Below are positions 3 through 14,976 of a DNA stretch of 32,000 bases, one piece after another. Below the pieces are notes generated by a model that worked only from the letters and a program-made list of their open reading frames with translations, did no database searches and was not told the DNA's origin. This DNA comes from Caldivirga maquilingensis IC-167 (GTDB taxonomy: Archaea; Thermoproteota; Thermoprotei; Thermoproteales; Thermocladiaceae). Where the stretch lies: the NCBI RefSeq assembly GCF_000018305.1, contig NC_009954.1:1-32000 (forward strand), given 5' to 3'. The first letter of the stretch is position 1. Each line of letters begins with the position of its first letter. Position numbers and translations under genes: made by a program.

Positions 3-3000
3 TTACTTAGCGCCAGGCCCAAATAAGCCTCCTGCCAACCTCCTCCTCCTCCAGTTACCGTACTCTATCAGCAGCACCACTATTATTATTATCACAATCA
101 GTATTATGACTGCCACTAGTATTAGCGTACTTAACGGCACGAAGGCACCGAATATTACGTAGCCGCTTATTGGCACAATAGCCCTAACACTCATCACTGA
201 GCCAACGGTTGGAGTCACTGTGGTTGAGTTGGTTACACCATAAGCACTCACACTAACTGTGTATGACACGCCACCTGGCACTATAACGCTCACTGAACCA
301 ACACCAGCTGCAATCTGCTTACCACTGTAAGTTACGGCAATCTGTGCATTACTCAACTGAACACCATTAATGGTGTAGGCGGCTATACTCAACTGGCTAA
401 CCGGCACACTCACTGATGCCTGTGTACCAGGTGACACAGTGACTGTTATTGGTGATAATGGTACACCACTCACATTACCAATCAGTGAATATGTTCCACT
501 CGGCACAATTATACTTACATCACTGGCCGAACCACTGGCAATAGTCCTACCATTATACTGTAGGGCTAGTGAGTAGCTGCTCGGTATCAAACCACCGGCA
601 AAGCTGACTGCAATCTTACCAACAGGTATAGTGGCTGATGCTACTTGCCCAGTAGCCACTGACACACTTATTGGTGATAATGGTACACCACTCACTACTC
701 CAGTTAAACCATAGGTACCAGCTGGAACAACTATACTCACTGCACTTGCTGATCCACTGGCAATAACCATACCATTGTACGTTAAGTTCAATGTGTAGCT
801 ACTTGGCACGTAACCACCAGCGAACTGGACGGCAATCTTACCCACCGGTATAGTTACCGATGCCACTGAACCAGCACCAACACTAAAGCTCATTGCTGAC
901 AGCGGCACACCGTCAATTGTACCATTTATACTGTATGAGCCGGCTGGGACAACAACACTTACATCACTCACACCACCACTGGCAATAACCATACCATTAT
1001 ACAGCAGGTTCAGTGTGTAGCTGCTTGGTACTAAGCCACTGGCGAAGCCAACAGCTACCTTACCAACAGGTATGGTGACTGGGGTAGTGGTGCCGTTGGT
1101 GACAGACACTGATATTGCTGATAATGGTACACTAGTAACCACACCGGTTAAGCTGTAGCTACCTGGTGGTAACACTAAGCTTACGTCACTGGCTGATCCA
1201 CTGGCAATAACCATACCATTGTATGTTAAATTCAACGTGTAGCTGGTTGGTGTTAAGCCGCCGGCAAACTGGACAGCCAATGCACCAGCTGGGGCAATTA
1301 AACTCTGCACTGCACCATTCATTACTGTGGCGCTTAGGCTCTCTGGAACACCCTGTATTGAAATATCCACGGTGTAGGTTGTACCACTGGCACTATTCAC
1401 AGGTAGTACGAATGTACCAGGTAGTGAACCAGTGGTTACCTGCGTTGTACCATAATATACTGTCACTGAGGTCTGCTCAGTGGGTAACGGCTTCAAGGCT
1501 GGTGTCACTGTTAATGCACCAGCTGGTACAGTGTACTGTATTGGTGCTGTGGCATTGCTTGGAGTCAGTGTGTATATCCTGGTTGAGTAGACGCCTATGG
1601 GTACATGCATCCACTGTACTGTGGTTACATTAACAATAGCACCACTTACGCTTATTGGTAATACTGGTGTAGTTACAGTACCACTTGATGGCACAGTGAA
1701 CGCTCCTGAGAATACCTGCGCCGGAATGGGTCCACTAATTATTGGTACACCAGCACTAGTTATACCATTGAAAATATACTCTGGTTCAGTTACCGTTATA
1801 CTAACATTGGCTCCAGTTGGTATACTGCCAACACTGGTTAATGTGCTAAGTGATAATAAACCAGTGCTGACACCAACGATTACCGGTACGTACACTGCCC
1901 TTAATGTAACACTGAAGACACCGCTTGGCACAGTGGCACCACGCTGTATACTGAATGTTGCATTACCAGCCTCAACATAACTATTATCATACACCGGCAC
2001 GTATGCTATAATGAAGAAGCTTGTTGCAGGTACCTGGCTATACACAGTGGTGCCTATGCTACTCACCCTATGGTCGTATATTGTTGCTGAACCACTGGTT
2101 CCGGTGGTTGTCATGCCCTCAAACTCAACACCCTGCGCTGTTGAATCATAGACTAGTACAGTGGCATTGCTAACTGGCTGACCACCAGTGTTCTCCACTG
2201 TAACAGTCATGGCGTACACATACGTCCTAACACTGGTTGCTGAGAATGAGTCACCTAACTGGTACACGTCATTGGGTACTGAGGTGTCGTAGATGTCTAT
2301 GAAGTAGTACTTCTTCGGGTTAAGTAACCAAAGTGGGTAACTATCATACCAGTACACCGCAATCCTAACCGGTGGCTTGGCTGAAGTCGCCGCTGTTACG
2401 CTTGACTGACCCACTGTGACACCGTATGCGCTTGACGTGTAGGTTGTGGTGAATGCAGTACTGTTAATACCCTTTAATGCTGTTGATGTTACTGAGGTGC
2501 CGTTGGCGTATGTTGCCGTTGCTGATACTGAGACGCTGACTGGTAATGGTTGGGCTAGTGTACCATTCTGCGTTGTTACAGTTAAACCAACTAGATTGTT
2601 ACCGAAGTACACTGCCACGGTCTGGTTTGCTAGTGGTCTACTGTTCCAATCCTGCACCACGGTTAATGGGGCATAGTAGACGCTTACAGTGAAGGTACCG
2701 GCCAACGTTGTCTTAATGTACTGGTCACCGTCAGTGGTTGGGAACGTCATACCTGTGTCAACCCAACCACCAAGCACCTTACCAACAAGCCTATAGTAAC
2801 CACTGCTCACTGATGCTTGTACAACCGTGGCGTTTGTGCCTGCGTATAATTCAGTGAAGGGTATCTGTATGTTGGCTGACTGGCTAACCACAATTGGTGT
2901 AATGAAGCCTTGCACCGCACTTAATGGTAATTCACCGGTATAGCCATTAACAGTCACCGGCTGGCCAGCGTAGTTGTATAGGTAGAATACGAAGGCCTCA

Positions 3001-6000
3001 GTGTACGGTGTGTAGGTTACGTTGTACAGGTACTTGACGTAGTATGATATGCTTAAGTCCATTGAAGGCTCAACAAAGGACATTACATTAACTGGAGCCA
3101 TCTCGCTCTCTAATGCGGCTAAAACCTCAGTGGCGTTTATTGCGAAGGTTGAGCCGTATAGTCCAGTCACCGGTATGGTGGTTATCATGCCGAACGGTAA
3201 CTGGACTGGTGTGGGGAATGATGCACTGGTTATTTCAGTTCCGTTAACGTAGTATACGTAGCCTGTGGCGTTGACGCCAGCCATCACTGTGGCGTATGGT
3301 ATTGGTGATGGTGGCGTCATGGTGTTGTACACTTGAATACCCTCAAGGTACACTGTGGGTAGGTTAATCGCGTTATGCATTATATCAATGAAGGCCAGTG
3401 GCTTACCCTCAACGACACCGTATATCGCATACAGTGGCCAGAACCCGGCTCCAGTGCCGAATCCAACACCAGGTATGCCTTCACTCATGTCACCACTGAA
3501 TGATGCAGCAACCACGCCAGGCTTCAGTGAGCTAACGTATATTGTTGACCAGTTACCTGTCACGTTATAGGCGTTAAGCACCATGAATAATGAGGCGTTA
3601 ACATATGGTAGAGTCACTATGGCGTTGCTTGGTGCGTAACCAGTAGTCATGACTGAGATCCAGCTTGGCTGGTTGGGTGTGCTTGGTGTACTTAACACAT
3701 ATGCCCTAGCAATCCTAGCGAAGAATAATGCATTAGCAGCCTCACTGCTTGGTGACGTGGTTAAGAGGCTTGGGTATAGCGTACTCACCTTAATCAGTAC
3801 CCTGGTTAGGTTGAGTTCAGGCAGTATTGGCGTGTAGCCAGCGGTGTTTAATGCGTAGGTTGGTATGTCTACTAAAGCCTCACCGCTTGGCCCAACTGAA
3901 ACCAGTAGCGTGAATGGTGAACCGAAGTAGTTGGCCCAACCAACTGGTGTTGTGGCTGTGGCGAACGGTAGCGTTGTGCCATTAACCGGCACAACCCTCC
4001 ACCACACTAGGCCCTTACCGTATCCAGTACCGTTATTGTAAACAGTGATACTGCTCCTGGATAAGTAGCCACCCATTGCTGTTGAGATCACTGGCGTTGT
4101 CTCAAAGGCCCAGCCTGAACCAGTACCGTAAACTATTATTGAAACAACCTCACCAGTAACCGTCGCCTTTCCACTTAAGACCTGGGTTAGTAGCTTAGCT
4201 GCGGTTAAGTTTGTTACCTGGGTTAATAGACTCTGAACACTCACAGTGAACGCCATGGGTACCCATCTGCCAACAGCCAGGTTATAGTACATTGTTAGGT
4301 TCTTAGTGGCCACGTCAACAACGAAGGTACCCGTTGCGTTGGTGACCAGTAACTGCACCACTGCCGTGGCGTTGATTATGCTGCTGCCTGGCTCAACATA
4401 TATATATGCCTCAAAGGTCCTTAATGCCAACGCCGCAGTGGATGGTGAGAAGCCTAATGATACAGTGCTATTGAATCCGTAGAATGAGCCTAGGGTAACA
4501 GGGGTGGTTGTTGGTAGTGTTACCTCGGCTGCAAGCTCATTAATCTTAACTGCACCGCTTAGGCTTGGTGGGAATAGTAGTGAGACGTATGGCGTTGTCA
4601 CGTATGTTGGTACACTGGTTGTGAATATTGATGTACCAACAGTCACATTAGTTATGTAGGCTGAGCCACTCCAAATGAAGTTACTCATGGGTAGCTCAGT
4701 GATGCCTACACCAGGCGCCATTACGTAGCCTGCTAGGTTGGGTAGGTAGTAGGCTATTAATGCGTACTCTGATTGCGGTGAGGCGTATTTACTGTAGTCA
4801 ACGCCACTGTAGCTATTGGATATGTACTCTGAACCCTCCCTGGCTATGTAGGTTGCTGCATTAATGTAGGCTTCACTCAACGTCTCGAATGGTGAAAGTA
4901 ATGATGATAGGTAGCCGGCTGCCCATGATGATACACTTGACGGTACTGCTTGACTTGGTATAAGTACCTTGAATAATGAATCGTAGAATGTTAAAGCAAC
5001 CACAGTGTTACCCACATTATAACCTAAGCTCTTACTGGTGACGTTAAGTAACACTGGATACACGCTGCTAACTATAACTATTGAGTTAGGTGGCACTTGT
5101 ACAGGCATACCACCCTCATACACAGTGTAGCTGCTCACGAACTTAATGGTGCCGTTGGCGTAAACCAGGGTTATCATACCCGGCGGCGGCACTATTATGT
5201 TGCCGCTGAACACCTCATAGCCCAGGTAGAATACTTTACCGTAGAATACTTGATTAGGCATGAATAACCTAACCAGGAAGCCTGTTGATGACCTACCGTA
5301 TGGGTATGATGGTATCTTGAATACTGCGTACTGGCTTGTACCTGAGGCGTTGGCTAAGTATATTGAGGTTAATAGGTATGACTGATTGTTAAGCACATCA
5401 CTGTATAATCCCTCACCTAAAGCCACAGACGTCAGGTTATAGAATATTGAAGCCAACCTAGTGTACAGTGACTTAGCTCCAGCAACACCCATTGTACTGA
5501 AGAATGTTAGGTTCCATGCATTATATGGGTAGGTGAACCAGACGCTTGCACCATTGTATGGACTGAAGGCGTCGTAGATAAGTAACGTAGTATTCATCCA
5601 GACTGCGGCACCAGGCAGCGCCATGGCTGGGTAAACCAACTGGTTGGCTAGGACATTATTCTGGGCATCAACCACGTAGGCGTGCAGGTTCTCAACATAG
5701 ACAGGTATCTCGAAGGTGTAGTAGCAGGATGTGTTAACTGGTATTGAATACTGGGCATTATAGTAAGCCACTAATCCCTCATCAATCTGAGCCCTAGTAC
5801 CAAACGTGTACGCTGAAACACCTGATGGTAGGCCTAGCCAAGCCGCGTACTCCGCATAGGTCTGGTTCCATAGTGACTGCAGGTAGGTGTATGTCCAAGA
5901 CTCCTCAGTACTCGGTATAATGGTTCTGACCTTTAATTCAAAGTAACTATTAGGCATTATGTAACTTGCGTTAATGGGTACATTCATTATGACTGCGGTA

Positions 6001-8819
6001 CCGTAGTTGGGTAACCCGGTTTGAGCATTAGCTGGAGGTAACTGGAACCCGGTAATGTGGCCATTAGCCACGAACTCAGTGGTGCCGTTGGTAATACCCT
6101 CAGTTATCTTCTGCCCAGTAACTGAACTGTAGGCCGCCACAACAAAGCCAGGTAGCGGTGTTGCCGGTGTAGTTACATTAGTTACTACCTGAATCACCAC
6201 GTCAATCAATGGGAAGTATATGAGGTTAACCACAGTGGGCTCTAGGGTTATTGGAGTCGTTATGGCCTGCCTTGTGAATGGATTAACAGGCGGCATTACG
6301 TAACCGAAGTAGTTCAGTGTGAAGCTTGCTGTTGGTGAAACAACAGTAACGGGTACATTCCACATGTTAACCTGCACTGGGAACTGGAGCACTGTGTATG
6401 GGTAGGCGAATAACAGTGACACATTGAACTTACCGTACGTTGTAGATACCGTGACAACACCCTGGGTTATGGTTTCATTGCATAGGTTAACGAACTCAAC
6501 CTTATATAAAGCAACGTGAACAGCAGTAATACCCTGCTCAGCAAAGTATGAGCCAGTAGCCGCAGTGAAGAAGGCCTCTTGGGCTGTGCCGTATAGCGTA
6601 TTGTTAACTAGGCTTGGGTAATACTGAGATGGATAATAGGCCTCAAATATTGGGTATATGTAGCCGCTTGGTATTGCTAATGGGGCATTGTAAACATTAA
6701 CACTTGAACTATTATAACTGGCCTCAAAAACACCTGAACCAACCAGTATTGTACCGTAGTAGAGCTGTAGGTTGAAGTACTCCAATTGAGTTGTTGGGTA
6801 GTAGAATGGCTCAGCGGTTAGTGATTCACCAGGTATTACTGATGCTGAGCTGAAGGTACCCTGCAGTGTGGGTAAGGGTAGTTCAACAACAGGTGATTGA
6901 GCCAAGAAGCCGTTACTTATGTGAACTACTTGAAGCGCCGGGAACACGGCTACTGTTGCTACTGTTGATGCTGAACTATACATTGTTACGTTACCAGTGG
7001 CCATTAGCGATAACTGTGATGTGGATGGACCGGCTAATAACACTGCCTTAATCTGCTCAGCCTTCTCAGCAAGTAGAGGCTCTTGACTAGTTACTGCAAC
7101 ACCGGGTGTGTACAAGGTTACCTCAAGTACAGTGGGTAGTAGTGATGTCCATATACTGCTTATGGTTACTGTGGGTGTATTATACTTTATGGCTAGGTTG
7201 ATTAATGATGATATGTTTAGTAAGGCTACATCCCAAGTACCACTTGTTGTTTGAAGCTCAATGGTAAGCATCATCTTAGTTGGTGAAATAGGTTGAGCCG
7301 TTGGTGATGTTGGTGGGTATACAGTGCCCGTGAATTCAACAGCCGGTATTGTGAAGCCCTCTATTAGGAAGCTTATTGGCAATGGACCATAGAGTATCTG
7401 CGCCAACTGCGGGCCAGTGGTTATCTCAAAGAGCAGTGAGGCTGTTGGTGAGAACTCGAAGCTGCTTGCAGCTATCAAATTACCCTTAATATCATATATG
7501 TTATGCGCTAACAGTGTTATTAAACCGCCTGCAATAACTAAGTCAGGTAAGCCTTCAAAATGCAGAACCCCTGTTGACGACTTCACTACACCATACCCGT
7601 AACCATCCATTGACGTTATGTTGAAGAAGGCATCATAATGGAAGTCGTAGCCAACCAATGCACCACCGAGGAGTAGACTACCGTTTGAGTATCCAGCTGA
7701 GGCGTAGTTGGTGGTTGCGTATACTGGCACTGACACAATACTCTGGGTACCTGGGTTGTAGTAACTGTACGTTACATTTATTGTGAAGTAAACTGGGTTA
7801 CTACTACCACCCTCAGCGTAACCCAGTAGGTGACCGTTCTGGAATATTAAACCAGTGAAGTACACTAATGGCCCGAAGGCGGCATAGCTGACACCGTCAC
7901 CGTATATGCTGGTGCTGAATTGACTTGCCGTTGGGTTGTAGGATAATGAGGAATTCACTATAATAGGCGTACCATTATAATACTCAGCGAATGTTAAGGC
8001 CAAGTCACTTAGTATTGATGATGACACTGAGGAGGCTACTCTTGAATCATTTAAATCAGTCCCAAACCAAATATATATTACATTAACACCAGGCAATGGT
8101 AACGCGTAGTACTCACCCGTAGTGCCGTTAACCTGAACCATTATTTGGAATTCCTTACCATTAGGCGCCGTTAAGAATGAGGGTGTTGAGCTTGATGCAG
8201 CACTAGTTAAGTTGGCTAGTAGGCTACCTAATTGGGCTGGTGCAGTGGTGAAGTTGAATGCAACCCACTGGTAACCATCATAGTTAATAGTAACTACAAC
8301 GAACCAGGAGGCGGTGAAGCTTGAGTAGTTCAGTGACTCAGGTGATACCGGTAGCTGGAAGCTGCTGGTGAATCCACCAGTGCTGTTTAGGGTTACTGTG
8401 AATGATTCACCAACCAGTAGGCCTATATCACTGGAGACTGCCGTATTGAAGTAGTCTAGGTAGGAGCCTGGAACCAGTGTGCCGTCGGGGTACTTTATGT
8501 CTGATGCGTTAAGTATGTAGAATGTTATTGTTTGCCCAGCGACACCGTAGTATGCTGGGACTGTGTCGTAGAGCAAGTGGTACATGCCCACTAGCGTAGT
8601 GTTTAGACTACTTACATAGGATACTGGTGGTTGAGCGTAGGCTAGGTTTAGTGATATTGTGAAGGTTTGATTAACTATCTTAACAGTAGGCGGCACCGGT
8701 GGACCAGGTAGGCTTATTGCCTTAACCGCATGCCCAGCCCAGGCTAGGGCCAGGGCTAGGGCTACTGCGAGCACTGGTAGTATTTTTGCTATTCCGTATT
8801 TCCCGGATTTATTGGACAT
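3..8819 (-). CDS. Giant (2938 aa) exported, C-terminally membrane-anchored, N-glycosylation-sequon-rich surface protein; candidate S-layer/envelope glycoprotein
   Basis: Uninterrupted 8.8-kb ORF with a true ATG (cat at 8817-8819) and a TAA stop (tta at 3-5). The N-terminus MSNKSGKYGIAKILPVLAVALALALAWAGHAVKA/IS is a classic signal peptide (nt ~8718-8819). The C-terminus has one very hydrophobic helix (FGAFVPLSTLILVAVIILIVIIIIVVLLI, nt ~66-152) followed by RRRR and a short tail. Composition is dominated by S/T/V/Y/N/A/G with sparse D/E/K/R and only 2 Cys. I counted 11 N-x-S/T sequons in the first ~290 residues, and similar density continues. No catalytic motif was recognised. The S-layer assignment itself is inference (about 0.35); the confidence given is for the CDS and its exported, anchored nature. 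Confidence 0.85.
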   Translation of the reverse strand: MSNKSGKYGIAKILPVLAVALALALAWAGHAVKAISLPGPPVPPTVKIVNQTFTISLNLAYAQPPVSYVSSLNTTLVGMYHLLYDTVPAYYGVAGQTITFYILNASDIKYPDGTLVPGSYLDYFNTAVSSDIGLLVGESFTVTLNSTGGFTSSFQLPVSPESLNYSSFTASWFVVVTINYDGYQWVAFNFTTAPAQLGSLLANLTSAASSSTPSFLTAPNGKEFQIMVQVNGTTGEYYALPLPGVNVIYIWFGTDLNDSRVASSVSSSILSDLALTFAEYYNGTPIIVNSSLSYNPTASQFSTSIYGDGVSYAAFGPLVYFTGLIFQNGHLLGYAEGGSSNPVYFTINVTYSYYNPGTQSIVSVPVYATTNYASAGYSNGSLLLGGALVGYDFHYDAFFNITSMDGYGYGVVKSSTGVLHFEGLPDLVIAGGLITLLAHNIYDIKGNLIAASSFEFSPTASLLFEITTGPQLAQILYGPLPISFLIEGFTIPAVEFTGTVYPPTSPTAQPISPTKMMLTIELQTTSGTWDVALLNISSLINLAIKYNTPTVTISSIWTSLLPTVLEVTLYTPGVAVTSQEPLLAEKAEQIKAVLLAGPSTSQLSLMATGNVTMYSSASTVATVAVFPALQVVHISNGFLAQSPVVELPLPTLQGTFSSASVIPGESLTAEPFYYPTTQLEYFNLQLYYGTILVGSGVFEASYNSSSVNVYNAPLAIPSGYIYPIFEAYYPSQYYPSLVNNTLYGTAQEAFFTAATGSYFAEQGITAVHVALYKVEFVNLCNETITQGVVTVSTTYGKFNVSLLFAYPYTVLQFPVQVNMWNVPVTVVSPTASFTLNYFGYVMPPVNPFTRQAITTPITLEPTVVNLIYFPLIDVVIQVVTNVTTPATPLPGFVVAAYSSVTGQKITEGITNGTTEFVANGHITGFQLPPANAQTGLPNYGTAVIMNVPINASYIMPNSYFELKVRTIIPSTEESWTYTYLQSLWNQTYAEYAAWLGLPSGVSAYTFGTRAQIDEGLVAYYNAQYSIPVNTSCYYTFEIPVYVENLHAYVVDAQNNVLANQLVYPAMALPGAAVWMNTTLLIYDAFSPYNGASVWFTYPYNAWNLTFFSTMGVAGAKSLYTRLASIFYNLTSVALGEGLYSDVLNNQSYLLTSIYLANASGTSQYAVFKIPSYPYGRSSTGFLVRLFMPNQVFYGKVFYLGYEVFSGNIIVPPPGMITLVYANGTIKFVSSYTVYEGGMPVQVPPNSIVIVSSVYPVLLNVTSKSLGYNVGNTVVALTFYDSLFKVLIPSQAVPSSVSSWAAGYLSSLLSPFETLSEAYINAATYIAREGSEYISNSYSGVDYSKYASPQSEYALIAYYLPNLAGYVMAPGVGITELPMSNFIWSGSAYITNVTVGTSIFTTSVPTYVTTPYVSLLFPPSLSGAVKINELAAEVTLPTTTPVTLGSFYGFNSTVSLGFSPSTAALALRTFEAYIYVEPGSSIINATAVVQLLVTNATGTFVVDVATKNLTMYYNLAVGRWVPMAFTVSVQSLLTQVTNLTAAKLLTQVLSGKATVTGEVVSIIVYGTGSGWAFETTPVISTAMGGYLSRSSITVYNNGTGYGKGLVWWRVVPVNGTTLPFATATTPVGWANYFGSPFTLLVSVGPSGEALVDIPTYALNTAGYTPILPELNLTRVLIKVSTLYPSLLTTSPSSEAANALFFARIARAYVLSTPSTPNQPSWISVMTTGYAPSNAIVTLPYVNASLFMVLNAYNVTGNWSTIYVSSLKPGVVAASFSGDMSEGIPGVGFGTGAGFWPLYAIYGVVEGKPLAFIDIMHNAINLPTVYLEGIQVYNTMTPPSPIPYATVMAGVNATGYVYYVNGTEITSASFPTPVQLPFGMITTIPVTGLYGSTFAINATEVLAALESEMAPVNVMSFVEPSMDLSISYYVKYLYNVTYTPYTEAFVFYLYNYAGQPVTVNGYTGELPLSAVQGFITPIVVSQSANIQIPFTELYAGTNATVVQASVSSGYYRLVGKVLGGWVDTGMTFPTTDGDQYIKTTLAGTFTVSVYYAPLTVVQDWNSRPLANQTVAVYFGNNLVGLTVTTQNGTLAQPLPVSVSVSATATYANGTSVTSTALKGINSTAFTTTYTSSAYGVTVGQSSVTAATSAKPPVRIAVYWYDSYPLWLLNPKKYYFIDIYDTSVPNDVYQLGDSFSATSVRTYVYAMTVTVENTGGQPVSNATVLVYDSTAQGVEFEGMTTTGTSGSATIYDHRVSSIGTTVYSQVPATSFFIIAYVPVYDNSYVEAGNATFSIQRGATVPSGVFSVTLRAVYVPVIVGVSTGLLSLSTLTSVGSIPTGANVSITVTEPEYIFNGITSAGVPIISGPIPAQVFSGAFTVPSSGTVTTPVLPISVSGAIVNVTTVQWMHVPIGVYSTRIYTLTPSNATAPIQYTVPAGALTVTPALKPLPTEQTSVTVYYGTTQVTTGSLPGTFVLPVNSASGTTYTVDISIQGVPESLSATVMNGAVQSLIAPAGALAVQFAGGLTPTSYTLNLTYNGMVIASGSASDVSLVLPPGSYSLTGVVTSVPLSAISVSVTNGTTTPVTIPVGKVAVGFASGLVPSSYTLNLLYNGMVIASGGVSDVSVVVPAGSYSINGTIDGVPLSAMSFSVGAGSVASVTIPVGKIAVQFAGGYVPSSYTLNLTYNGMVIASGSASAVSIVVPAGTYGLTGVVSGVPLSPISVSVATGQVASATIPVGKIAVSFAGGLIPSSYSLALQYNGRTIASGSASDVSIIVPSGTYSLIGNVSGVPLSPITVTVSPGTQASVSVPVSQLSIAAYTINGVQLSNAQIAVTYSGKQIAAGVGSVSVIVPGGVSYTVSVSAYGVTNSTTVTPTVGSVMSVRAIVPISGYVIFGAFVPLSTLILVAVIILIVIIIIVVLLIEYGNWRRRRLAGGLFGPGAK
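393..1280 (-). repeat. Four tandem 222-nt (74-aa) near-identical repeats inside the giant CDS, immediately N-terminal to the membrane anchor
   Basis: The string ccactggca recurs at 532, 754, 976 and 1198, an exact 222-nt spacing. Protein units are (L/V/I)AVxFAxGLxPSSYTLNLxYNGMVIASGSASDVSxVVPxGSYSLxGxVSGVPLSxISVSVxxGxxxxxTIPVGK at aa 2514-2809. More degenerate copies flank them at 162..392 and 1281..1472. Confidence 0.9.
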
Positions 8820-8841
8820 AAGCCCCTCCTAGAGCCACCCC

Positions 8842-8849
8842 TATTTAAA
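8842..8849 (-). promoter_or_regulatory. TATA box (TTTAAATA on minus strand) of the giant gene
   Basis: The A/T octamer lies 23-30 nt upstream of the ATG at 8819, the same spacing seen for most first-in-unit genes here. An AGGAGG (8825-8830) also sits 5 nt before the ATG, so a leaderless mRNA versus a short leader cannot be decided from sequence. Confidence 0.55.
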
Positions 8850-9054
8850 GAACCCCTCAGCCTCATCATGGAACAGTTAAAATAAGATCATGGAACCAAG
8901 CAAAACCATCAATGAACCAACACGACTAAGTAAACTCAACGCAATTCCACCATTAATTAACATCAATACGGCTTAATCACACATGGGCTTAAGCCGGAGG
9001 AGTGATTCAGTTTGAAGAAAATGGTTTAATTATTTTAAAGGTAGTTCACTTTAA

Positions 9055-11400
9055 TTACTTGTCAAGCAGTTGCGTACCGTAGTACACCAGGTTACCCACG
9101 TCTAGTGAACCAAAACCATTGACAGGGTTCCAGATGCATGGATTCTTAATAACCCAACCATTCACAGCCGTGGCGCCGTTTTGACCATATATTGATGGGT
9201 AGAAGACACCGTGGGTGTTTGTGCCGTAGACTGATGTTGGGTAGTAGGCGTTGCAGAAGCTTGAACCAGCCTCAGTGGCCCATATTTGGCTTAATGGCAC
9301 TGCGGCTAAGCCTACTTGGTAAGGTATGCCGGCTTTATTCAAGTAGTCCTGCCATAGGGCAACCATACCCATGGTTAATGGTGACGCCAGGCTAGTGCCA
9401 CCCCATATGAATGGGTTAAGTTCACCATCAATCACTATCAACACACCTGTATATGGATTAGCGTCAGCTGAGACTATTGGGTAACCCTTAGCGCCAATGG
9501 GTACGTATAGGCTTGGATAAAGCATCCACTCAAAGGTCCTGTAGAGGGGCGTGTATGGGTTAATGTTGAGTGTGGGTACGTAGGGTTCATTAACGAAGAA
9601 TTGACCAAGCAATAGACCCCATATTAATGGCTGGAACTGGGTTTGCTCATAGAAATTACCCTCACCTATTAGGTTGAATATGTACTGGTACTGGTAGAGC
9701 GGCATATCGAAGAATATTGAGTAACCACCGCCACTCCCCCAATATATTAAGTCCCATGGAGGTAGGCCGAAGCTGTAGAAGCTCCACGCGGTAATGAACC
9801 TTGATCCACCTGGGAACAGGTAGCTTGTTGTTCCACCAACCCCAGTGACCCATGGGTCAATGGATGGGTGGAAGGCTGAGACGAATGGGTAGAACTCGTA
9901 GGCACCAGAGTCACCGGAGGAGGCGAATACACCAATGCCCTGTGCCGCTGCCTGCATGAATATTTGATCGTAGGCTAAGGCATAGTATGGGTCAAGGTAG
10001 TCCTCTGATAAACCCCAGCTTAGGCTAATGAAGTTAACTAGGCTCTCATTAACCATGTACTCAATGGTAACGTATAAGTCATCCCCAGCATCAGGGGACA
10101 CCCCGAAGACTATCCTGGCCCCTGGGGCTATTGCGTGAACCCACTCATTATCGAGGACTGATTCAAAGGACCAACCGCAAGCATCAACGCTGTTAAACGG
10201 AGTGATGAATGGTTCACCAGCCGGGTATATTACTGTAATACTCGCTGGAGGTAGGTCGAAGAGTGATGAGAATGCATTAACATCACTAACTATTATATCG
10301 TTGTACGGTGATAAGGCGTAGCCGCAGAATCCGTTAACTAAATGACTCTCAGCGTCACCGAAGGCGTCAACTATACCCACGGTAACTGATGAACCGTTGT
10401 AACCGTTGTAATCACCAATGAACCAAAGCGGGTACAGTGGTGTGGCATTGTAAAGTAGCTCAATACCCTGGGGTAGGTATACTTCTATTGGGAATTGCAG
10501 TATGAATTCACTGGGCTTATTTAACGCTGAGTTGGCTAAGGCGCTTTGAGCCTCCAATTGAACAGCAACAGGCTTACCGTTAATCACCAGCGGTGACTTT
10601 GAGACAACGCCACTGGGCTTAATCATACTGTAGCTAGGCTGCACCTGAAACTCCCTAGCCAGGTATAGGGCTAAGGCGTGGCCAACACTGTAACCGTGGC
10701 TACCCCTCACGTAGACGGCATACTTCATTAAGACTGGTTGACCCTTATAAGTTACCGGTAGTTGGATTACACCAGTGTTATTATTAATAGATTCAACGGT
10801 CTTAAGCAACTGCTGAAACTCACCGGGTGTTATTTCAAGGAAGAAGCCCTGTGGATTAGTCTCAGTAACCAACACCCAACTAACCCATGAAAACGAAGCA
10901 TTATTGTAAATGAAGTACTCTATCGTCGCGTTAATTATTGATATGCAGGCGTTGTAAGCATTACTCTGCACACCTAATGCAGCATACATTGGTGCTGACT
11001 TAACCTCCGTGGTTAAGTTATAGTAACTGTATATTGCCGTTAAGTTACCGTAGACGCTTGCTGGCGCTGAGTACCATTCATCGAATTCAGCCGCTGATAT
11101 GAACCTGTGGTATAGTGGGCTTGAGGGATTATAGTACTCACTATAAAGCACGTTACCTAAGCCTGTGGCGTTGTTTAGGTATAGGAACGTTATTAGGCTT
11201 GTTGGGTAGGGTAACGGTATAAAGGTCCCATTAGGTGCAATAATTCCATATTCTATGCAAAACACCTCTGAGCCCAGGTAGTATGGGTTTGGTTGATCAG
11301 GTGATTGAGCGTTAACCACGTATAGTGAGATGACTATAGCCACTGTTACAGCCACTAGTATTGCAGCTATTTTACCCCCTTTACTGAATCTATAATCCAT
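9055..11400 (-). CDS. Secreted sedolisin-family (MEROPS S53) serine-carboxyl peptidase with a long N-terminal pro/extra region
   Basis: True ATG at 11398-11400. N-terminal signal or signal-anchor KIAAILVAVTVAIVISLYVVNA/QS. The S53 catalytic set is recognisable: E413-x3-D417 in SFESVLDNEWVHAIAPGA (codons 10162-10164 and 10150-10152), oxyanion Asp in ASSGDSGA (D497, 9910-9912), and the nucleophile Ser in WGGTSLASP (S670, 9391-9393). The catalytic domain starts near VTVGIVDAFGD (aa ~340). Confidence 0.85.
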   Translation of the reverse strand: MDYRFSKGGKIAAILVAVTVAIVISLYVVNAQSPDQPNPYYLGSEVFCIEYGIIAPNGTFIPLPYPTSLITFLYLNNATGLGNVLYSEYYNPSSPLYHRFISAAEFDEWYSAPASVYGNLTAIYSYYNLTTEVKSAPMYAALGVQSNAYNACISIINATIEYFIYNNASFSWVSWVLVTETNPQGFFLEITPGEFQQLLKTVESINNNTGVIQLPVTYKGQPVLMKYAVYVRGSHGYSVGHALALYLAREFQVQPSYSMIKPSGVVSKSPLVINGKPVAVQLEAQSALANSALNKPSEFILQFPIEVYLPQGIELLYNATPLYPLWFIGDYNGYNGSSVTVGIVDAFGDAESHLVNGFCGYALSPYNDIIVSDVNAFSSLFDLPPASITVIYPAGEPFITPFNSVDACGWSFESVLDNEWVHAIAPGARIVFGVSPDAGDDLYVTIEYMVNESLVNFISLSWGLSEDYLDPYYALAYDQIFMQAAAQGIGVFASSGDSGAYEFYPFVSAFHPSIDPWVTGVGGTTSYLFPGGSRFITAWSFYSFGLPPWDLIYWGSGGGYSIFFDMPLYQYQYIFNLIGEGNFYEQTQFQPLIWGLLLGQFFVNEPYVPTLNINPYTPLYRTFEWMLYPSLYVPIGAKGYPIVSADANPYTGVLIVIDGELNPFIWGGTSLASPLTMGMVALWQDYLNKAGIPYQVGLAAVPLSQIWATEAGSSFCNAYYPTSVYGTNTHGVFYPSIYGQNGATAVNGWVIKNPCIWNPVNGFGSLDVGNLVYYGTQLLDK

Positions 11401-11423
11401 GAATTACTTAAACCCACTGTAGG

Positions 11424-11435
11424 TTTTTTAAAAAT
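11424..11435 (-). promoter_or_regulatory. TATA-like A/T block (TTTTTAAAAAA) upstream of the S53 peptidase gene; its T-run could also terminate the upstream 1149-aa gene
   Basis: It lies 24-35 nt upstream of the ATG at 11400, inside the 53-nt gap between the two genes. Confidence 0.5.
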
Positions 11436-11453
11436 TCACCTATAGCTTCAGCG

Positions 11454-14400
11454 TTACCTTAATCTTCTACTCAATACAATTAATAATACCACTGTAACTG
11501 TAAATATGATTAATGCTATTGAATAATAACCCACCGCTGGTTTACTTAATAGGCATGCTTCATTAATGGGTACTAGTGGTTTAATGATACCGTAGGCGTT
11601 ACTCACCTGCCTAACACTATACTCACCGCACTTAACCATTACTGTTACGAATGGTTCCGGTAACCCCAGTGAATCCGTAACCTTAAACACCCTGTACGCT
11701 ACATCAGCCTCAGCGTTAATGGGTTGATTAACCATTGAGGCGTTTACTATTAATGGTTCCTTAAGCCTAATTGTTAAGTTACCCCATTTAACACTACTGA
11801 TGATTGGGCTGCTTGCATTAACCCACCCACTAATAATAGTTAACGGTGTGTTGTTTAAAGTGTGTACGCTGATGCTTATGAACCACTGCTTAAGGTACAT
11901 TACAGTTACGTTTAATGGGGCATTAACCACCAATTGATTAGAGTTTATCGGCTTCCCATTAACCAGAATACCGCTTAGTATTAGCCTAGTGCTGTTTCCT
12001 AGGCTTAACACTGGGGTTGGGCTTAAGTTAAGTCTAGTTGATGCGTTAACCCAATACTCCTCAAACATCCACGGTGACTCATCTATCGTGGTTACATTGG
12101 TTAATAGGTACTGGGGTGTGTAGGATTCATTAATAATCATTGGACCAGTCACATTAATGATAATGCTATTTACCCTAGGTATGAGCCTGGTTAGGTTGCT
12201 TAACTCAATAATGGTATTAGTTATCTTAATTATTGAATCTGAGTTAACCCATTCACTAGTCTCATTAAACACACCGAGCTTAGAGTATTTAACCATGGTT
12301 ACTAGGAATTGAATAACATAAGTCACGTTAATAATTATCGGCTCATTAACAGTAACCTCAACCACAGGGGTCCTTGGTATTAGCCTAACGCTGCTATTAA
12401 TGTTAACCACCGGCCTCGGCATTACCCTGAGTATTGAGTCTGAGTTAACCCAAAGCCAAGTCTCATTAATTAAACCAAGCCTTGAGTACTCTATTATAGT
12501 TACATTATACTGCCTAGTGTAGTTCACGGTTACTGTAAGTGGCTTATTAACAATCACTGTTACTGGTGTTTCATTAATGAGCCTAGTACCGTTATTGAAG
12601 TACACGAACATAGGGTACTTTATCACATAACCCTCCCTAAACCAACCCTCTGTTGAGTTAATGGGTAACCCATTCACAAGTACATTAACCCTAACCCAAT
12701 ACTCCCTAATCCAAAGAACATCAAGGTAATTAACCATTCTACTCAACCTTATTGAGAATGAGTTATTGGCTATGTATTCACCGTTGAATATTGAACCATT
12801 GTATATTAGTCTAGTTCCATTCCCCAACGTTAAAACCAGTGGTAATGTCACATTAACAGTCTCATTACCGAGATAGTAGCCTGAAAGCTTTAACGCTAAA
12901 CCTGATTCATCCATCACTATTAACTCACTGTGAAGTACAACATTCACCATTATGCATAATGGCCCATAATCAATGTAAATGCTCCCATTGAATAGACTCC
13001 ACGTGTATGCGCATACGGTGTAGGCGCCATTGTTGGTGAAGTTCCTCACTAATTGGAGTGATGTAATGTTGGTTTCATTTAAGGTGAATATTCTTAAGCC
13101 ATTAGTACTTATGATTAATGTTAGGTTACCTGGCTTACTTAGATTAAGGTATATTAATACGCTTTGATTACCAGGTATTATTGGCTTAACACCCATGTCC
13201 TCGATTACCGGCGTTCTCCACGTGATGTTAATTACGTTTAAGCCAGGCTTAAGATGAATAATGGTTTCACCCAGGTATTGAACGGTACCGTTGATTAACC
13301 TAATTGTGAATAACCTAATTAAGCCTACTCTACTTAATGTTAGGTTGAATAATGATGCATTACCCAGTATTATTGAATCATTAACCACACCACTCATAAT
13401 TACCCTATACTCCCCAGCCTCATTGGGTGCCCTAATGGTAACGTTGACTATTGGGGTTAAGTCAACGTCAAGTGTTACTGATGAATTAATGTTTATGTTC
13501 TCCGACTCACCTATGAAGTACCTAGCCTTAATACTCATTGAGTAATTATTACACACAACCATTAGTGAGGCTTCACCCGACCCATTACTCAACGCCACAT
13601 ACTTATTGGCGTTAGGCCAATTACTAACTAGGGTTATGGATGCGTTAGCCACTGGTTCACTGGTTCCATTAACCATAACCCTCACTGTTACATTGCATAG
13701 CCTAACCCTACTCAGCATTAGGTTAATAACCTCATTGGAATCCACAATAACGCGCTCAGTCACGTTATAATAGCCCTCAGCCTGGGCTAGTAAGGTATAT
13801 TGGCCTTGGGGGAGGGGTATTGTTGAATTCGGGGTTATGCTCAATGAGACTGGGCCGCTTAATTTAATTAATGCATTCCGGGTGTTGGTTAATAGGGTTA
13901 CATTATATATTACTGGTATTGCCTCCCGGGAGGCCACCGATGATGAACCATCATTACCAACCACGTAGAGGACACCAGGTGAGATTGGGGTTATTGAGTA
14001 GAGTATTAGCGGTAGGTATAGGTTCCCACCTTGAATAGTGTTGTAGAGTGGTGTTAAACCATATATTGAGTAGTAGCCGTAACCACCATCACCACTTGAT
14101 GTTGAGCCAGCGAAAACATACTCATAATCAATGTAAGTAACACTGGTGAGTAGACTGTATTGGTTCAGGTACATGCTTAAATCCTTGAATTCACCATTAC
14201 TAATATTGAATATGCCAGCCACCGGCACTTGAATTAGGTAACCGGAGGAATTAACCACACCTTCACCAACAACCATGAATCCAAGGGGCCCGTACGCCGC
14301 TGAGTATAGTACGTAATTGTAATTTGATGGTAATTTACTGCTCAGGTTTATTAAGGAACCAGTTGACATATTATAGAACCCTAATGCAGCACCATTAAGG

Positions 14401-14903
14401 CCCTCACCGACAATTAGGAACCCGCCGTCACCGTATGCTGCACCGTAGAGGGCTTTGAAGCCTATTGGCTTAATAATACTGTAACCAACCCCAGTGGTTA
14501 ATACTATTAACCCAGTGTTATTAACTGAACCAAGGGCCATGAAGTAACCGTCACCGTAGGCAACACCATATAAGGCCCCAGTACCATTAATATTAATAAC
14601 ATTATAAGCACCATTGGTTAAATTATAGATGATGAAAACCGGCCCACCGCCCTGGCTCACACCAACGGCAACAGCCATACACCCACCCACAGCCACTGAG
14701 TAGAGTATTGAGACGCCATGCACGCCCACAGTGCTGTATGGACCTGAATTACCCATTACACTAATTAACCCAACACCCCCGGATTCACCAACTATTACAA
14801 TGCGGCCACAGCCATATGCTACACCATAGTATAATTGACTACTCGCCACGAGCGATACGGCTAATGTAATTACAGTGACTATAACCAGTACCTGCAGCTT
14901 CAT
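11454..14903 (-). CDS. 1149-aa exported, C-terminally anchored multi-repeat surface protein (propeller-like N-domain plus tandem beta-modules)
   Basis: True ATG at 14901-14903. Signal peptide MKLQVLVIVTVITLAVSLVASS. C-terminal helix YYSIALIIFTVTVVLLIVL (nt ~11472-11528) followed by SRRLR and the stop. Many N-x-S/T sequons. Internal repeats are listed separately. Two segments resemble carboxypeptidase-regulatory-like beta-sandwich patterns (CNVTVRVMVNGTSEPVANASITLV and YRVFKVTDSLGLPEPFVTVMVK); that resemblance is a weak by-eye call. Confidence 0.85.
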   Translation of the reverse strand: MKLQVLVIVTVITLAVSLVASSQLYYGVAYGCGRIVIVGESGGVGLISVMGNSGPYSTVGVHGVSILYSVAVGGCMAVAVGVSQGGGPVFIIYNLTNGAYNVININGTGALYGVAYGDGYFMALGSVNNTGLIVLTTGVGYSIIKPIGFKALYGAAYGDGGFLIVGEGLNGAALGFYNMSTGSLINLSSKLPSNYNYVLYSAAYGPLGFMVVGEGVVNSSGYLIQVPVAGIFNISNGEFKDLSMYLNQYSLLTSVTYIDYEYVFAGSTSSGDGGYGYYSIYGLTPLYNTIQGGNLYLPLILYSITPISPGVLYVVGNDGSSSVASREAIPVIYNVTLLTNTRNALIKLSGPVSLSITPNSTIPLPQGQYTLLAQAEGYYNVTERVIVDSNEVINLMLSRVRLCNVTVRVMVNGTSEPVANASITLVSNWPNANKYVALSNGSGEASLMVVCNNYSMSIKARYFIGESENININSSVTLDVDLTPIVNVTIRAPNEAGEYRVIMSGVVNDSIILGNASLFNLTLSRVGLIRLFTIRLINGTVQYLGETIIHLKPGLNVINITWRTPVIEDMGVKPIIPGNQSVLIYLNLSKPGNLTLIISTNGLRIFTLNETNITSLQLVRNFTNNGAYTVCAYTWSLFNGSIYIDYGPLCIMVNVVLHSELIVMDESGLALKLSGYYLGNETVNVTLPLVLTLGNGTRLIYNGSIFNGEYIANNSFSIRLSRMVNYLDVLWIREYWVRVNVLVNGLPINSTEGWFREGYVIKYPMFVYFNNGTRLINETPVTVIVNKPLTVTVNYTRQYNVTIIEYSRLGLINETWLWVNSDSILRVMPRPVVNINSSVRLIPRTPVVEVTVNEPIIINVTYVIQFLVTMVKYSKLGVFNETSEWVNSDSIIKITNTIIELSNLTRLIPRVNSIIINVTGPMIINESYTPQYLLTNVTTIDESPWMFEEYWVNASTRLNLSPTPVLSLGNSTRLILSGILVNGKPINSNQLVVNAPLNVTVMYLKQWFISISVHTLNNTPLTIISGWVNASSPIISSVKWGNLTIRLKEPLIVNASMVNQPINAEADVAYRVFKVTDSLGLPEPFVTVMVKCGEYSVRQVSNAYGIIKPLVPINEACLLSKPAVGYYSIALIIFTVTVVLLIVLSRRLR
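11709..12941 (-). repeat. Five to six tandem ~66-77-aa modules (pattern ...xTRLIPRxxxxxxxVxxPxxxNVTYxxQYxVTxxxYSxLGxxNETxxWVNSDSIxxx)
   Basis: Protein-level periodicity spans aa ~655-1065. Two adjacent units keep DNA-level similarity: ctgagttaaccca at ~12238 and ~12437, a spacing of about 198 nt. Resemblance to bacterial InlB-B-repeat-like beta modules is a by-eye impression only. Confidence 0.65.
13910..14830 (-). repeat. About seven degenerate ~40-50-aa repeats with motif (L)Y(G/S)(V/A)AYG-x-G-x-(F/I)(V/M)(V/I/A)VG-E/S-G; beta-propeller-like
   Basis: Units seen in the translation: YYGVAYGCGRIVIVGESG, LYSVAVGGCMAVAVGVSQG, LYGVAYGDGYFMALGSVNN, LYGAAYGDGGFLIVGEGLNG, LYSAAYGPLGFMVVGEGVVNSSG, LTSVTYIDYEYVFAGSTSSGDG and LYSITPISPGVLYVVGNDGSS. 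The propeller fold is inferred from periodicity only. Confidence 0.6.
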
Positions 14904-14922
14904 TGCAGTTGAATCAGGGTGC

Positions 14923-14931
14923 TTAATTTAA
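14923..14931 (-). promoter_or_regulatory. TATA-like box (TTAAATTAA) of the 1149-aa gene
   Basis: It lies 20-28 nt upstream of the ATG at 14903, in the 73-nt gap after rps24e. Confidence 0.45.
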
Positions 14932-14976
14932 GCATTATTGCGATGAGTGCGCTTAATGAGGCGCCTCCGCTATTGC

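Follow-up and report, generated by a model that had tools for sequence, protein, structure and literature searches.

A giant gene for a probable S-layer protein and its sedolisin neighbour in Caldivirga maquilingensis and related Thermocladiaceae

What kind of cell surface is encoded by three consecutive genes for large exported proteins, and do the three belong together? The question is raised by a stretch of 32,000 nucleotides (hereafter, the window) from the chromosome of the archaeon Caldivirga maquilingensis IC-167, which encodes on its minus strand a giant protein of 2938 aa (3..8819; UniProt A8M9H4, ABW00855.1), a sedolisin, i.e., a pre-pro-peptidase of family S53, of 781 aa (9055..11400; A8M9H5, ABW00856.1; 'S53 family peptidase' in RefSeq) and an anchored glycoprotein with a propeller and Ig-like repeats, of 1149 aa (11454..14903; A8M9H6, ABW00857.1; 'PEGA domain-containing protein' in RefSeq, hereafter the PEGA protein). 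The three open reading frames match the records of this organism exactly, and their coordinates, export signals and TATA-like boxes are those given in a first-pass annotation, which had proposed an S-layer-type protein accompanied by an associated protease and a second anchored protein. That annotation had also called the envelope proteins of such organisms poorly characterised, a statement overtaken by a recent preprint (bioRxiv 10.64898/2026.08.21.746120): the identity of the S-layer protein of the Thermoproteales had been open for decades, and was solved, for Pyrobaculum only, in August 2026. In our reading, the locus probably encodes the S-layer protein (SLP) of C. maquilingensis, and the two genes upstream of its own would likewise be envelope genes. 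The S-layer candidacy of A8M9H4 was already known from the preprint, and the S53 and PEGA annotations from RefSeq; what is new here is the pairing of sedolisin and SLP genes in the Thermocladiaceae and its turnover, a variable gene cassette, a promoter module and a compositional contrast with the Pyrobaculum protein.

The S-layer protein of Pyrobaculum arsenaticum (PySLP, UniProt A0A7L4PAH2) was identified by electron cryo-microscopy, electron cryo-tomography and mass spectrometry as a polypeptide of 292 kDa with 19 Ig-like domains, and A8M9H4 was given as its candidate homologue in C. maquilingensis (bioRxiv 10.64898/2026.08.21.746120). The marks of the family, according to the same preprint, are tandem Ig-like domains, a Phe-bearing β-hairpin between the last of these domains and the membrane helix, and, at the C-terminus, this helix and, after it, a very basic tail with a terminal Lys; BLAST identities of 23-39% are reported as well. 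For Caldivirga the text of the preprint has the accession A8M9H4, whereas its Fig. 7 legend has A8M8H4; it is the former that identifies the window protein. With its 2938 aa and a hydrophobic segment at residues 10-28, it has the size (>2000 aa) and the signal peptide of the family. Pfam, NCBIfam and PDB sequence searches with the giant protein gave no usable match, and a word-indexed homology search returned at least four close relatives. An exhaustive profile search of 1.84 billion representatives, with the C-terminal 1200 residues as the query, returned only 59 proteins, mostly of 2168-2772 aa and including sequences from Pyrobaculum sp. and Thermoproteaceae. The best matches outside Caldivirga, all within that size range, included a 2633-aa protein from a metagenome-assembled genome (MAG) of Pyrobaculum sp. 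(E = 2.6e-55) and a protein of a Thermoproteaceae archaeon. By full-length BLASTP, the SLP and the Pyrobaculum sp. protein align in a collinear pair of segments, one spanning residues 1701-2746 (E = 8e-34) and the other starting at residue 647 (E = 7e-13).

The C-terminal module common to the family (...VP-x-(S/T)G...F-x-P-L-(S/P)-T-L, membrane helix, (I/L/M)EY-x-NWRRR(R/K)L...(K/R)) is complete in the window SLP, which ends in ...GPGAK, and the EY-x-NWRRR(R/K)L tail motif occurs only once in the window, in this protein. Judged by these homologies, the membership of A8M9H4 in the PySLP-type 'colossal' S-layer protein family is well supported, in line with the S-layer-type assignment first proposed, and the analysis gives independent support to the Caldivirga family member named in the preprint. 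The same C-terminal module, which runs from the last Ig-like domain through the hairpin and the membrane helix to the EYxNWRRRRL tail, was also seen on many short proteins of ~150-730 aa (P0116, P0133, P0134, P0138, P0151 and others), among which the Caldivirga-like P0116 (731 aa) carries a tail almost identical to that of the window SLP. Such short proteins could insert alongside the SLP stalks.

Following the polypeptide from its N-terminus, the SLP begins with a signal peptide (residues 1-34; 8718..8819, minus strand), with a predicted cleavage site between GHAVKA and ISLPGPP and an N-terminus that is conserved among the Caldivirga orthologues. The most conserved block of the family, as defined on an alignment of 12 sequences of the Caldivirga, Thermocladium, Pyrobaculum and Thermoproteus types, lies at residues 2040-2320 (1860..2702, minus strand) and reads QDWNSRPLANQT ... 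YDxxxxxDVxQLGD ... RTYVY ... SQVP ... IQRGATVP; a search with it yielded 65 SLP loci from metagenomes. It is followed by the stalk, with four canonical Ig-like repeats of 74 aa (residues 2514-2808; 396..1280, minus strand; E = 1e-45 to 8e-29 with a hidden Markov model of the repeat) flanked on both sides by degenerate copies (~2440-2513 and 2809-2883). The repeats are visible even in the DNA, as a tandem repeat at 446-1251 with a period of 222 nt and 3.6 copies. The Thermocladium orthologues have ~2 stalk repeats fewer, so that a shorter stalk, and with it a narrower gap between membrane and canopy, would be predicted for them.

An AlphaFold2 model was built for the C-terminal 1200 residues from a 3-sequence alignment, and its first 774 residues (pLDDT ~20-40) were not used. 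Over residues 2513-2929 the model is confident and consists of five Ig-like β-sandwiches (2513-2883, pLDDT 70-87), a hairpin and a helix. The stalk part matches arrays of Ig domains in Foldseek, including that of SlaB of Sulfolobus acidocaldarius (8qox_B, E = 6.4e-6), in agreement with an HHpred result of the preprint (bioRxiv 10.64898/2026.08.21.746120). The membrane-proximal hairpin (residues 2886-2895, GYVIFGAFVP; 135..164, minus strand) has its strands at 2886-2889 and 2892-2895 and two Phe residues, Phe2890 and Phe2893; its motif is conserved across the family and agrees with the hairpin described for it (bioRxiv 10.64898/2026.08.21.746120). The chain ends with a predicted transmembrane helix (residues 2896-2918, hydropathy 4.13) and a basic tail, EYGNWRRRRLAGGLFGPGAK, that would be cytoplasmic (6..134 for helix and tail, minus strand), with the Arg cluster WRRRRL...K; its last residues, ...LLIEYGNWRRRRLAGGLFGPGAK before the stop codon, include the final Lys, as in the PySLP family. 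No coiled coil was found in the modelled C-terminal stalk, which is all-β, the membrane helix being its sole long helix.

How far, then, does the resemblance to PySLP go? In both cases tandem Ig-like domains, the Phe hairpin, the C-terminal membrane helix and the basic tail with its final Lys belong to one giant polypeptide which, in Pyrobaculum, is at once lattice, stalk and anchor, and which in Caldivirga would by analogy form the lattice as well; the collinear similarity to the Pyrobaculum sp. homologue points in the same direction. On the other hand, the Caldivirga SLP is only ~24% identical, would lack the crown domain, which is reported to be missing outside Pyrobaculum (bioRxiv 10.64898/2026.08.21.746120), and contains 6.6% of charged residues versus 16-20% in the Pyrobaculum type, about a third, and 2 Cys versus 14 in PySLP. 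The low charge means that a positively charged surface of the Pyrobaculum type probably does not apply to it, and the two Cys that the same probably holds for disulphide bracing as in PySLP. The S-layer of S. acidocaldarius, SlaA/SlaB, is likewise that of an acidophile, with a canopy on a membrane-anchored stalk, although it is made of two or three components and has a coiled-coil stalk, whereas the Caldivirga one would consist of a single polypeptide with no coiled coil.

The composition of the three proteins sets them apart from the rest of the window, which is occupied by housekeeping genes (those of ribosomal proteins S24e, L18, L19e and L32e, a thermosome subunit and aldehyde:ferredoxin oxidoreductase, among others). 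Asp, Glu, Lys and Arg together make up 6.6% of the SLP, and 9.9% and 10.9% of the sedolisin and the PEGA protein, against 20-37% in the cytoplasmic neighbours; such a low charge is the usual signature of acid exposure. Similarly, N-x-S/T sequons number 65 in the SLP (29.6 expected from 300 composition-preserving shuffles; z = 7.2), 55 in the PEGA protein (15.8 expected; z = 11) and 10 in the sedolisin (5.7 expected; z = 2.1), compared with 0-2 apiece in the other 14 genes, so that the richness in sequons claimed for all three is borne out, with a weak excess in the case of the sedolisin. By hydropathy, all three carry an N-terminal hydrophobic, signal-like segment, and two of them, as had been noted, end in a single hydrophobic helix plus an Arg cluster, namely the SLP and the PEGA protein (helix ~1123-1148, then SRRLR); a C-terminal anchor was looked for in the sedolisin in the same way, and none was found. 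The codon adaptation index (computed relative to ribosomal protein, thermosome and pyrophosphatase genes) ranges from 0.59 to 0.76 throughout the window, setting no gene apart, and is thus uninformative on expression; a tRNA scan and an Rfam scan of the window were both empty.

Each of the three genes has a TATA-like box 5' of its ATG: TTTAAATA at -30..-23 for the SLP gene, and boxes at -34..-24 (11424-11434) and -29..-19 (14922-14932) for those of the sedolisin and the PEGA protein, respectively. These positions fit a probably leaderless transcription of every gene from a promoter of its own. The SLP promoter is in addition part of a larger module (8838..8897, minus strand), formed by GGGGTTCTTTAAATAGGGG at 8838-8856, which includes the TATA-like box, and, upstream, two GTTCCATGAT boxes 22 nt apart (8865-8875 and 8887-8897). 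This module is near base-for-base identical across all the Caldivirga loci compared (L006, L007, L011, L012 and the window), and the Thermocladium SLP promoters (L001, L004, L009, L010) share this arrangement; their boxes, ~39 nt apart, read GTTCCA(A/C)G and are accompanied by GGGGTTCTTAAAAAGGGGG. The boxes may constitute a putative transcription-factor site of a very highly expressed gene.

The middle protein is, from its sequence, an S53 sedolisin with intact catalytic residues, and it is the only one of the three with a recognisable enzymatic domain, just as first described. Homology searches against the PDB matched it to kumamolisin (E = 5e-14) and to tripeptidyl-peptidase 1 (E = 3.5e-4); the Pfam Peptidase_S8 match is sub-threshold (18.8 vs 21.8 bits), and a NCBIfam scan gave nothing useful. 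In a residue-by-residue alignment with kumamolisin (1gt9), Glu413, Asp417, Asp497 and Ser670 correspond to the catalytic Glu and Asp, the oxyanion Asp and the catalytic Ser, which we take to be Glu78, Asp82, Asp164 and Ser278 in kumamolisin, and the four residues are kept in 17 of 17 aligned relatives. They are held within the core of the catalytic domain (residues ~400-700; 9301..10203, minus strand), and the alignment ends at about residue 690, leaving the C-terminal part of the sedolisin outside. The likeness to kumamolisin and the MEROPS family S53 thus comprises the Glu-Asp-Ser triad and the oxyanion Asp in the same contexts (ExxxD, SGDSG, GGTS), an expected pre-pro organisation and an acidophilic, thermophilic source; the window enzyme differs in its length (781 aa vs ~550 for pro-kumamolisin) and in the linkage of its gene to that of an S-layer protein. 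No Pfam pro-domain was matched in its long and poorly conserved N-terminal region, and Pro-kuma_activ is matched weakly (E ~1e-5) by the Thermocladium sedolisins and by those of a second clade. The window protein belongs to the first clade (clade I), which also comprises those of L011, P0007 and Thermocladium (46-72% identity to the window protein) and which has extra segments at 198-252 and 576-624 relative to free-standing relatives, the latter being an insertion with respect to clade II. Clade II (L012, Caldivirga sp. MU80 and L017-L020) is 33% identical to the window protein and 64-68% identical to free-standing Vulcanisaeta sedolisins.

Is the position of this gene next to that of the SLP a peculiarity of one strain? 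A scan of a genome collection, a scan of metagenomes and the context of individual loci were used for comparison, counting as informative those loci with usable sequence upstream of the SLP gene. In every informative locus of Caldivirga and Thermocladium (~15), a sedolisin gene lies directly 5' of the SLP gene and on the same strand: in Caldivirga, the window (with a gap of 235 bp), L011, L012, L006 and L007; in Thermocladium, L001, L004/L008, L009 and L010; and, among metagenomic loci, L017-L022 and L072. The flanks differ by genus, from aldehyde:ferredoxin oxidoreductase-S24e ... ribosomal protein S2 in Caldivirga to a CCA-adding enzyme and others in Thermocladium; the sedolisin-SLP pair is the only conserved unit. 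As to the 'associated protease' of the first-pass annotation, the adjacency of the two genes is conserved in both genera, and the support this provides is genomic.

Moreover, the occupant of the slot has changed. The SLPs encoded beside clade II sedolisins are 73-77% identical to that of the window, and at L072 (245-3626) the SLP gene is immediately preceded by what remains of one sedolisin gene, a C-terminal stretch of 128 residues that is 89% identical to the L012 type, and this in turn by a complete clade II copy, an arrangement that looks like a gene replacement in progress. In a more distant group of SLPs (29-30% identity), probably Vulcanisaeta-like from its tail motif, a clade II sedolisin gene is adjacent and divergently transcribed in two of four informative loci (L013/L071 and L062). 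Two contigs of Caldivirga sp. MU80, L006 and L007, each carry a sedolisin gene followed by the N-terminus of an SLP (73% and 69% identity to that of the window), corresponding either to two SLP loci or to a mixed-strain assembly. The recurrence of a sedolisin in this slot, as read from gene adjacency, argues for some selective link.

Other branches of the family have other neighbours. A sedolisin gene was found at none of the 25 informative loci of the Pyrobaculum type (0/23) and of the acidophilic Thermoproteus type (0/2). In these (L049:2002-3942, L055:2040-3962, L040:2157-4082 and L024:23-1921), the gene next to that of the SLP on its upstream side encodes a protein of ~640 aa, which is anchored at its N-terminus, has a linker rich in Thr and Pro, contains 17 sequons, falls into no Pfam family and is unrelated to the PEGA protein. 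The possibility of a degenerate sedolisin was ruled out, as BLASTP gave no match; the protein is probably the 'membrane-associated Ig-like' one of the conserved Pyrobaculum neighbourhood, which further includes AMMECR1, a thioredoxin-like protein, adenylate cyclase and DNA ligase, in contrast to the sedolisin found in Caldivirga (bioRxiv 10.64898/2026.08.21.746120).

The third gene behaves in a different way. The PEGA protein has Pfam matches to CarboxypepD_reg (4e-8; 33.9 vs a cut-off of 32.3 bits) and PEGA (7e-5; 23.1 vs 20.8 bits), and its description as an anchored propeller and repeat protein agrees with both its AlphaFold2 model (mean pLDDT 66), which shows a propeller, a long series of β-sandwiches and a C-terminal helix, and its Foldseek matches. 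The seven-bladed β-propeller (residues 23-330; 13914..14837, minus strand) is built on a repeated LYGVAYGDGxFxxVG, with four-stranded blades at pLDDT ~70-83 mostly, and matches the propeller receptors BT4663 (4a2m, E = 1e-9) and SorCS2. The remainder (11469..13907, minus strand) contains the PEGA/CarboxypepD_reg domains (residues 333-482), later β-sandwich modules and N-x-T-R-L-I repeats, a membrane helix at ~1123-1145 and the tail SRRLR, in which the EYxNWRRRR motif of the SLP family was not found. Its homologues are only five in 5.8 billion clustered sequences. Its gene adjoins that of a clade I sedolisin in all four contigs (window, L011, L014, L015), and that of the SLP in just two of them, the window and L011, and it was found at none of the 65 metagenomic SLP loci, so that the three genes do not form the conserved unit that had been proposed. 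At its position, other Caldivirga have a GT4 glycosyltransferase and a secreted, helix-rich glycoprotein of 488-504 aa with 24-26 sequons, which has no similarity to either the PEGA protein or the SLP. The whole segment from S24e to the SLP promoter (9055-14903 in the window, L012:4712-9351, L006:4907-9733) is a swappable cassette, holding either the PEGA protein and a clade I sedolisin or the glycosyltransferase, the 488-504-aa glycoprotein and a clade II sedolisin; the G+C content of the PEGA gene region is 0.38-0.41, as compared to ~0.46. From this distribution, the PEGA protein is a strain-variable accessory surface protein that tracks one sedolisin clade rather than the SLP gene. In Thermocladium, two genes upstream of the sedolisin, there is a C-terminally anchored, sequon-rich, propeller-like protein of 370-401 aa (L001:4847-5959, L009:4633-5838), to which the PEGA propeller gives a weak match (hhalign probability 61%, E = 8e-5, 89 columns).

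Taken together, the favoured picture would be as follows. The SLP would leave the cell via its signal peptide and be anchored through a single helix at its C-terminus, with the basic tail on the cytoplasmic side. About six Ig-like modules, the four canonical ones and the degenerate ones, with the Phe hairpin at the membrane, would keep it at a distance from the membrane, while its large N-terminal part would, by analogy with the Pyrobaculum protein, form the lattice. The heavy N-glycosylation predicted for it and its near absence of charge are what one would expect of a surface at about pH 4, and it would be transcribed, probably without a leader, from a conserved promoter of its own. The sedolisin, a serine-carboxyl peptidase of an acid-activated kind, would be exported as a pre-pro-enzyme, would activate itself at the external pH and would most probably act at or under the S-layer canopy, mainly digesting external protein to feed a heterotroph that lives on peptides; the trimming or turnover of envelope proteins may be a further role. 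The PEGA protein would be a membrane-anchored glycoprotein with a distal propeller on a long β-sandwich stalk, presumably serving as an accessory receptor or binder.

Several points weigh against this picture. The S-layer role of the Caldivirga protein is drawn from an identity of 24-30% to the Pyrobaculum-type family and from a preprint that is not peer-reviewed, the comparison partner was a related Pyrobaculum sp. sequence rather than the solved protein A0A7L4PAH2, and the SLP model is confident over the last ~420 residues, to which the claims drawn from the model are limited. Regarding the sedolisin, its link to the SLP is one of adjacency between genes that seem to have a separate promoter each; the acidophilic Thermoproteus-type SLP loci without a sedolisin indicate that neither acidity nor an S-layer requires one; and the sedolisins of V. 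souniana and of a 'Thermoproteus sp.' MAG are encoded away from any giant gene. Besides, at L014, a Caldivirga-like contig, the genes of a PEGA protein and a clade I sedolisin (54% and 72% identical to those of the window) are followed by that of aconitase X (AcnX), on the opposite strand (L014:5902-6612), in place of the SLP gene, and hence this clade I pair can reside elsewhere in the genome.

C. maquilingensis is moderately acidophilic and uses proteinaceous substrates for growth. The sedolisin might be an ordinary secreted acid protease with a nutritional role and without a particular tie to the S-layer, its position resulting from a site 5' of the SLP promoter that tolerates the insertion and replacement of secretome genes, and from neighbours being only rarely separated, an explanation to which we would assign somewhat less than an even chance. 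It accounts well for the separate promoters and the gap of 235 bp, the variable cassette between S24e and the SLP promoter, the free-standing clade II sedolisins of V. souniana, the broken adjacency at L014 and the other exported proteins that fill the slot in other lineages. It has more difficulty with the persistence of the pair amid wholly different flanks in Caldivirga and Thermocladium, with one slot being taken by two non-orthologous sedolisins (33% identity) next to SLPs with an identity of 73-77%, with the replacement of one sedolisin by another at L072 and with the divergent adjacency where the SLPs share only 30% identity, since such a recurrence is hard to obtain by chance.

Could the enzyme instead be dedicated to the S-layer? 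It would then be a maturation protease, or one bound to the S-layer and retained beneath the canopy or on its stalks, and would be to an acidophile what the STABLE protease is to Staphylothermus marinus, a possibility that we regard as rather unlikely. What speaks for it is the conserved and repeatedly renewed adjacency, the extra segments of clade I (198-252 and 576-624), which might serve as docking surfaces, and the precedent of an S-layer-bound protease of clan SB in Staphylothermus (PMC5744192). Against it, the argument starts from gene adjacency, the density of the Pyrobaculum lattice is fully explained by the SLP, with no protease mentioned (bioRxiv 10.64898/2026.08.21.746120), the Pyrobaculum and Thermoproteus members of the family work without a sedolisin, and the stalk is all-β, unlike the coiled coil that carries STABLE.

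The comparison with tetrabrachion and STABLE made in the first-pass annotation thus stands as a functional analogy: in both organisms there is a very large, membrane-anchored S-layer protein with a canopy far from the membrane, or a candidate for it, and a pairing with a serine protease of clan SB in a peptide-fermenting hyperthermophile (PMC5744192). It does not extend to the structures, as both a coiled-coil stalk and an S8 protease were tested for here and found absent. The stalk of tetrabrachion is a four-stranded coiled coil, whereas that of Caldivirga is predicted to be an Ig-like array; STABLE is a subtilisin (S8), while the Caldivirga enzyme is a sedolisin (S53), with another catalytic triad within the clan; and the binding of STABLE to the stalk was shown biochemically, whereas the Caldivirga pair is known from the adjacency of its genes. 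A broader proposal sees in the S53 sedolisin of the acidophilic Caldivirga and Thermocladium a functional partner of the colossal S-layer, to which it would bind, or whose maturation or turnover would depend on it. Selection would then keep the slot 5' of the SLP gene filled so strongly that two different paralogues were recruited to it, and a second S-layer-protease system would have evolved independently of tetrabrachion/STABLE. This proposal should be taken as a tentative one, with the chances against it.

It is improbable, finally, that the giant protein is a paralogous anchored adhesin or sheath protein sharing with lattice formers only a stalk and anchor module, as might be thought from the portability of that module (found on many proteins of 150-730 aa), from a similarity to the Pyrobaculum type that peaks in the C-terminal third and from the reported lack of a crown domain, given the second collinear alignment over the N-terminal half, a homologue at L013 that aligns with the Caldivirga and other types over >2000 residues, a single giant protein of this kind in C. 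maquilingensis in the searches made, a conserved promoter of a strong consensus type, and a size, composition and glycosylation pattern that fit an S-layer protein.

The Caldivirga member leads beyond the preprint in several respects: an almost uncharged and almost Cys-free version of the SLP in an acidophile, a stalk whose length varies by the copy number of its repeats, a conserved promoter module, and a repeatedly renewed, lineage-specific pairing with a sedolisin. The literature search found no paper tying sedolisins to archaeal S-layers, and it found these genes mentioned in the preprint alone. Should the pairing turn out to be physical or related to processing, this would be only the second enzyme-bearing archaeal S-layer known; and should it be neither, the locus would still be a useful marker to find S-layer genes in metagenome-assembled genomes of the Thermocladiaceae.

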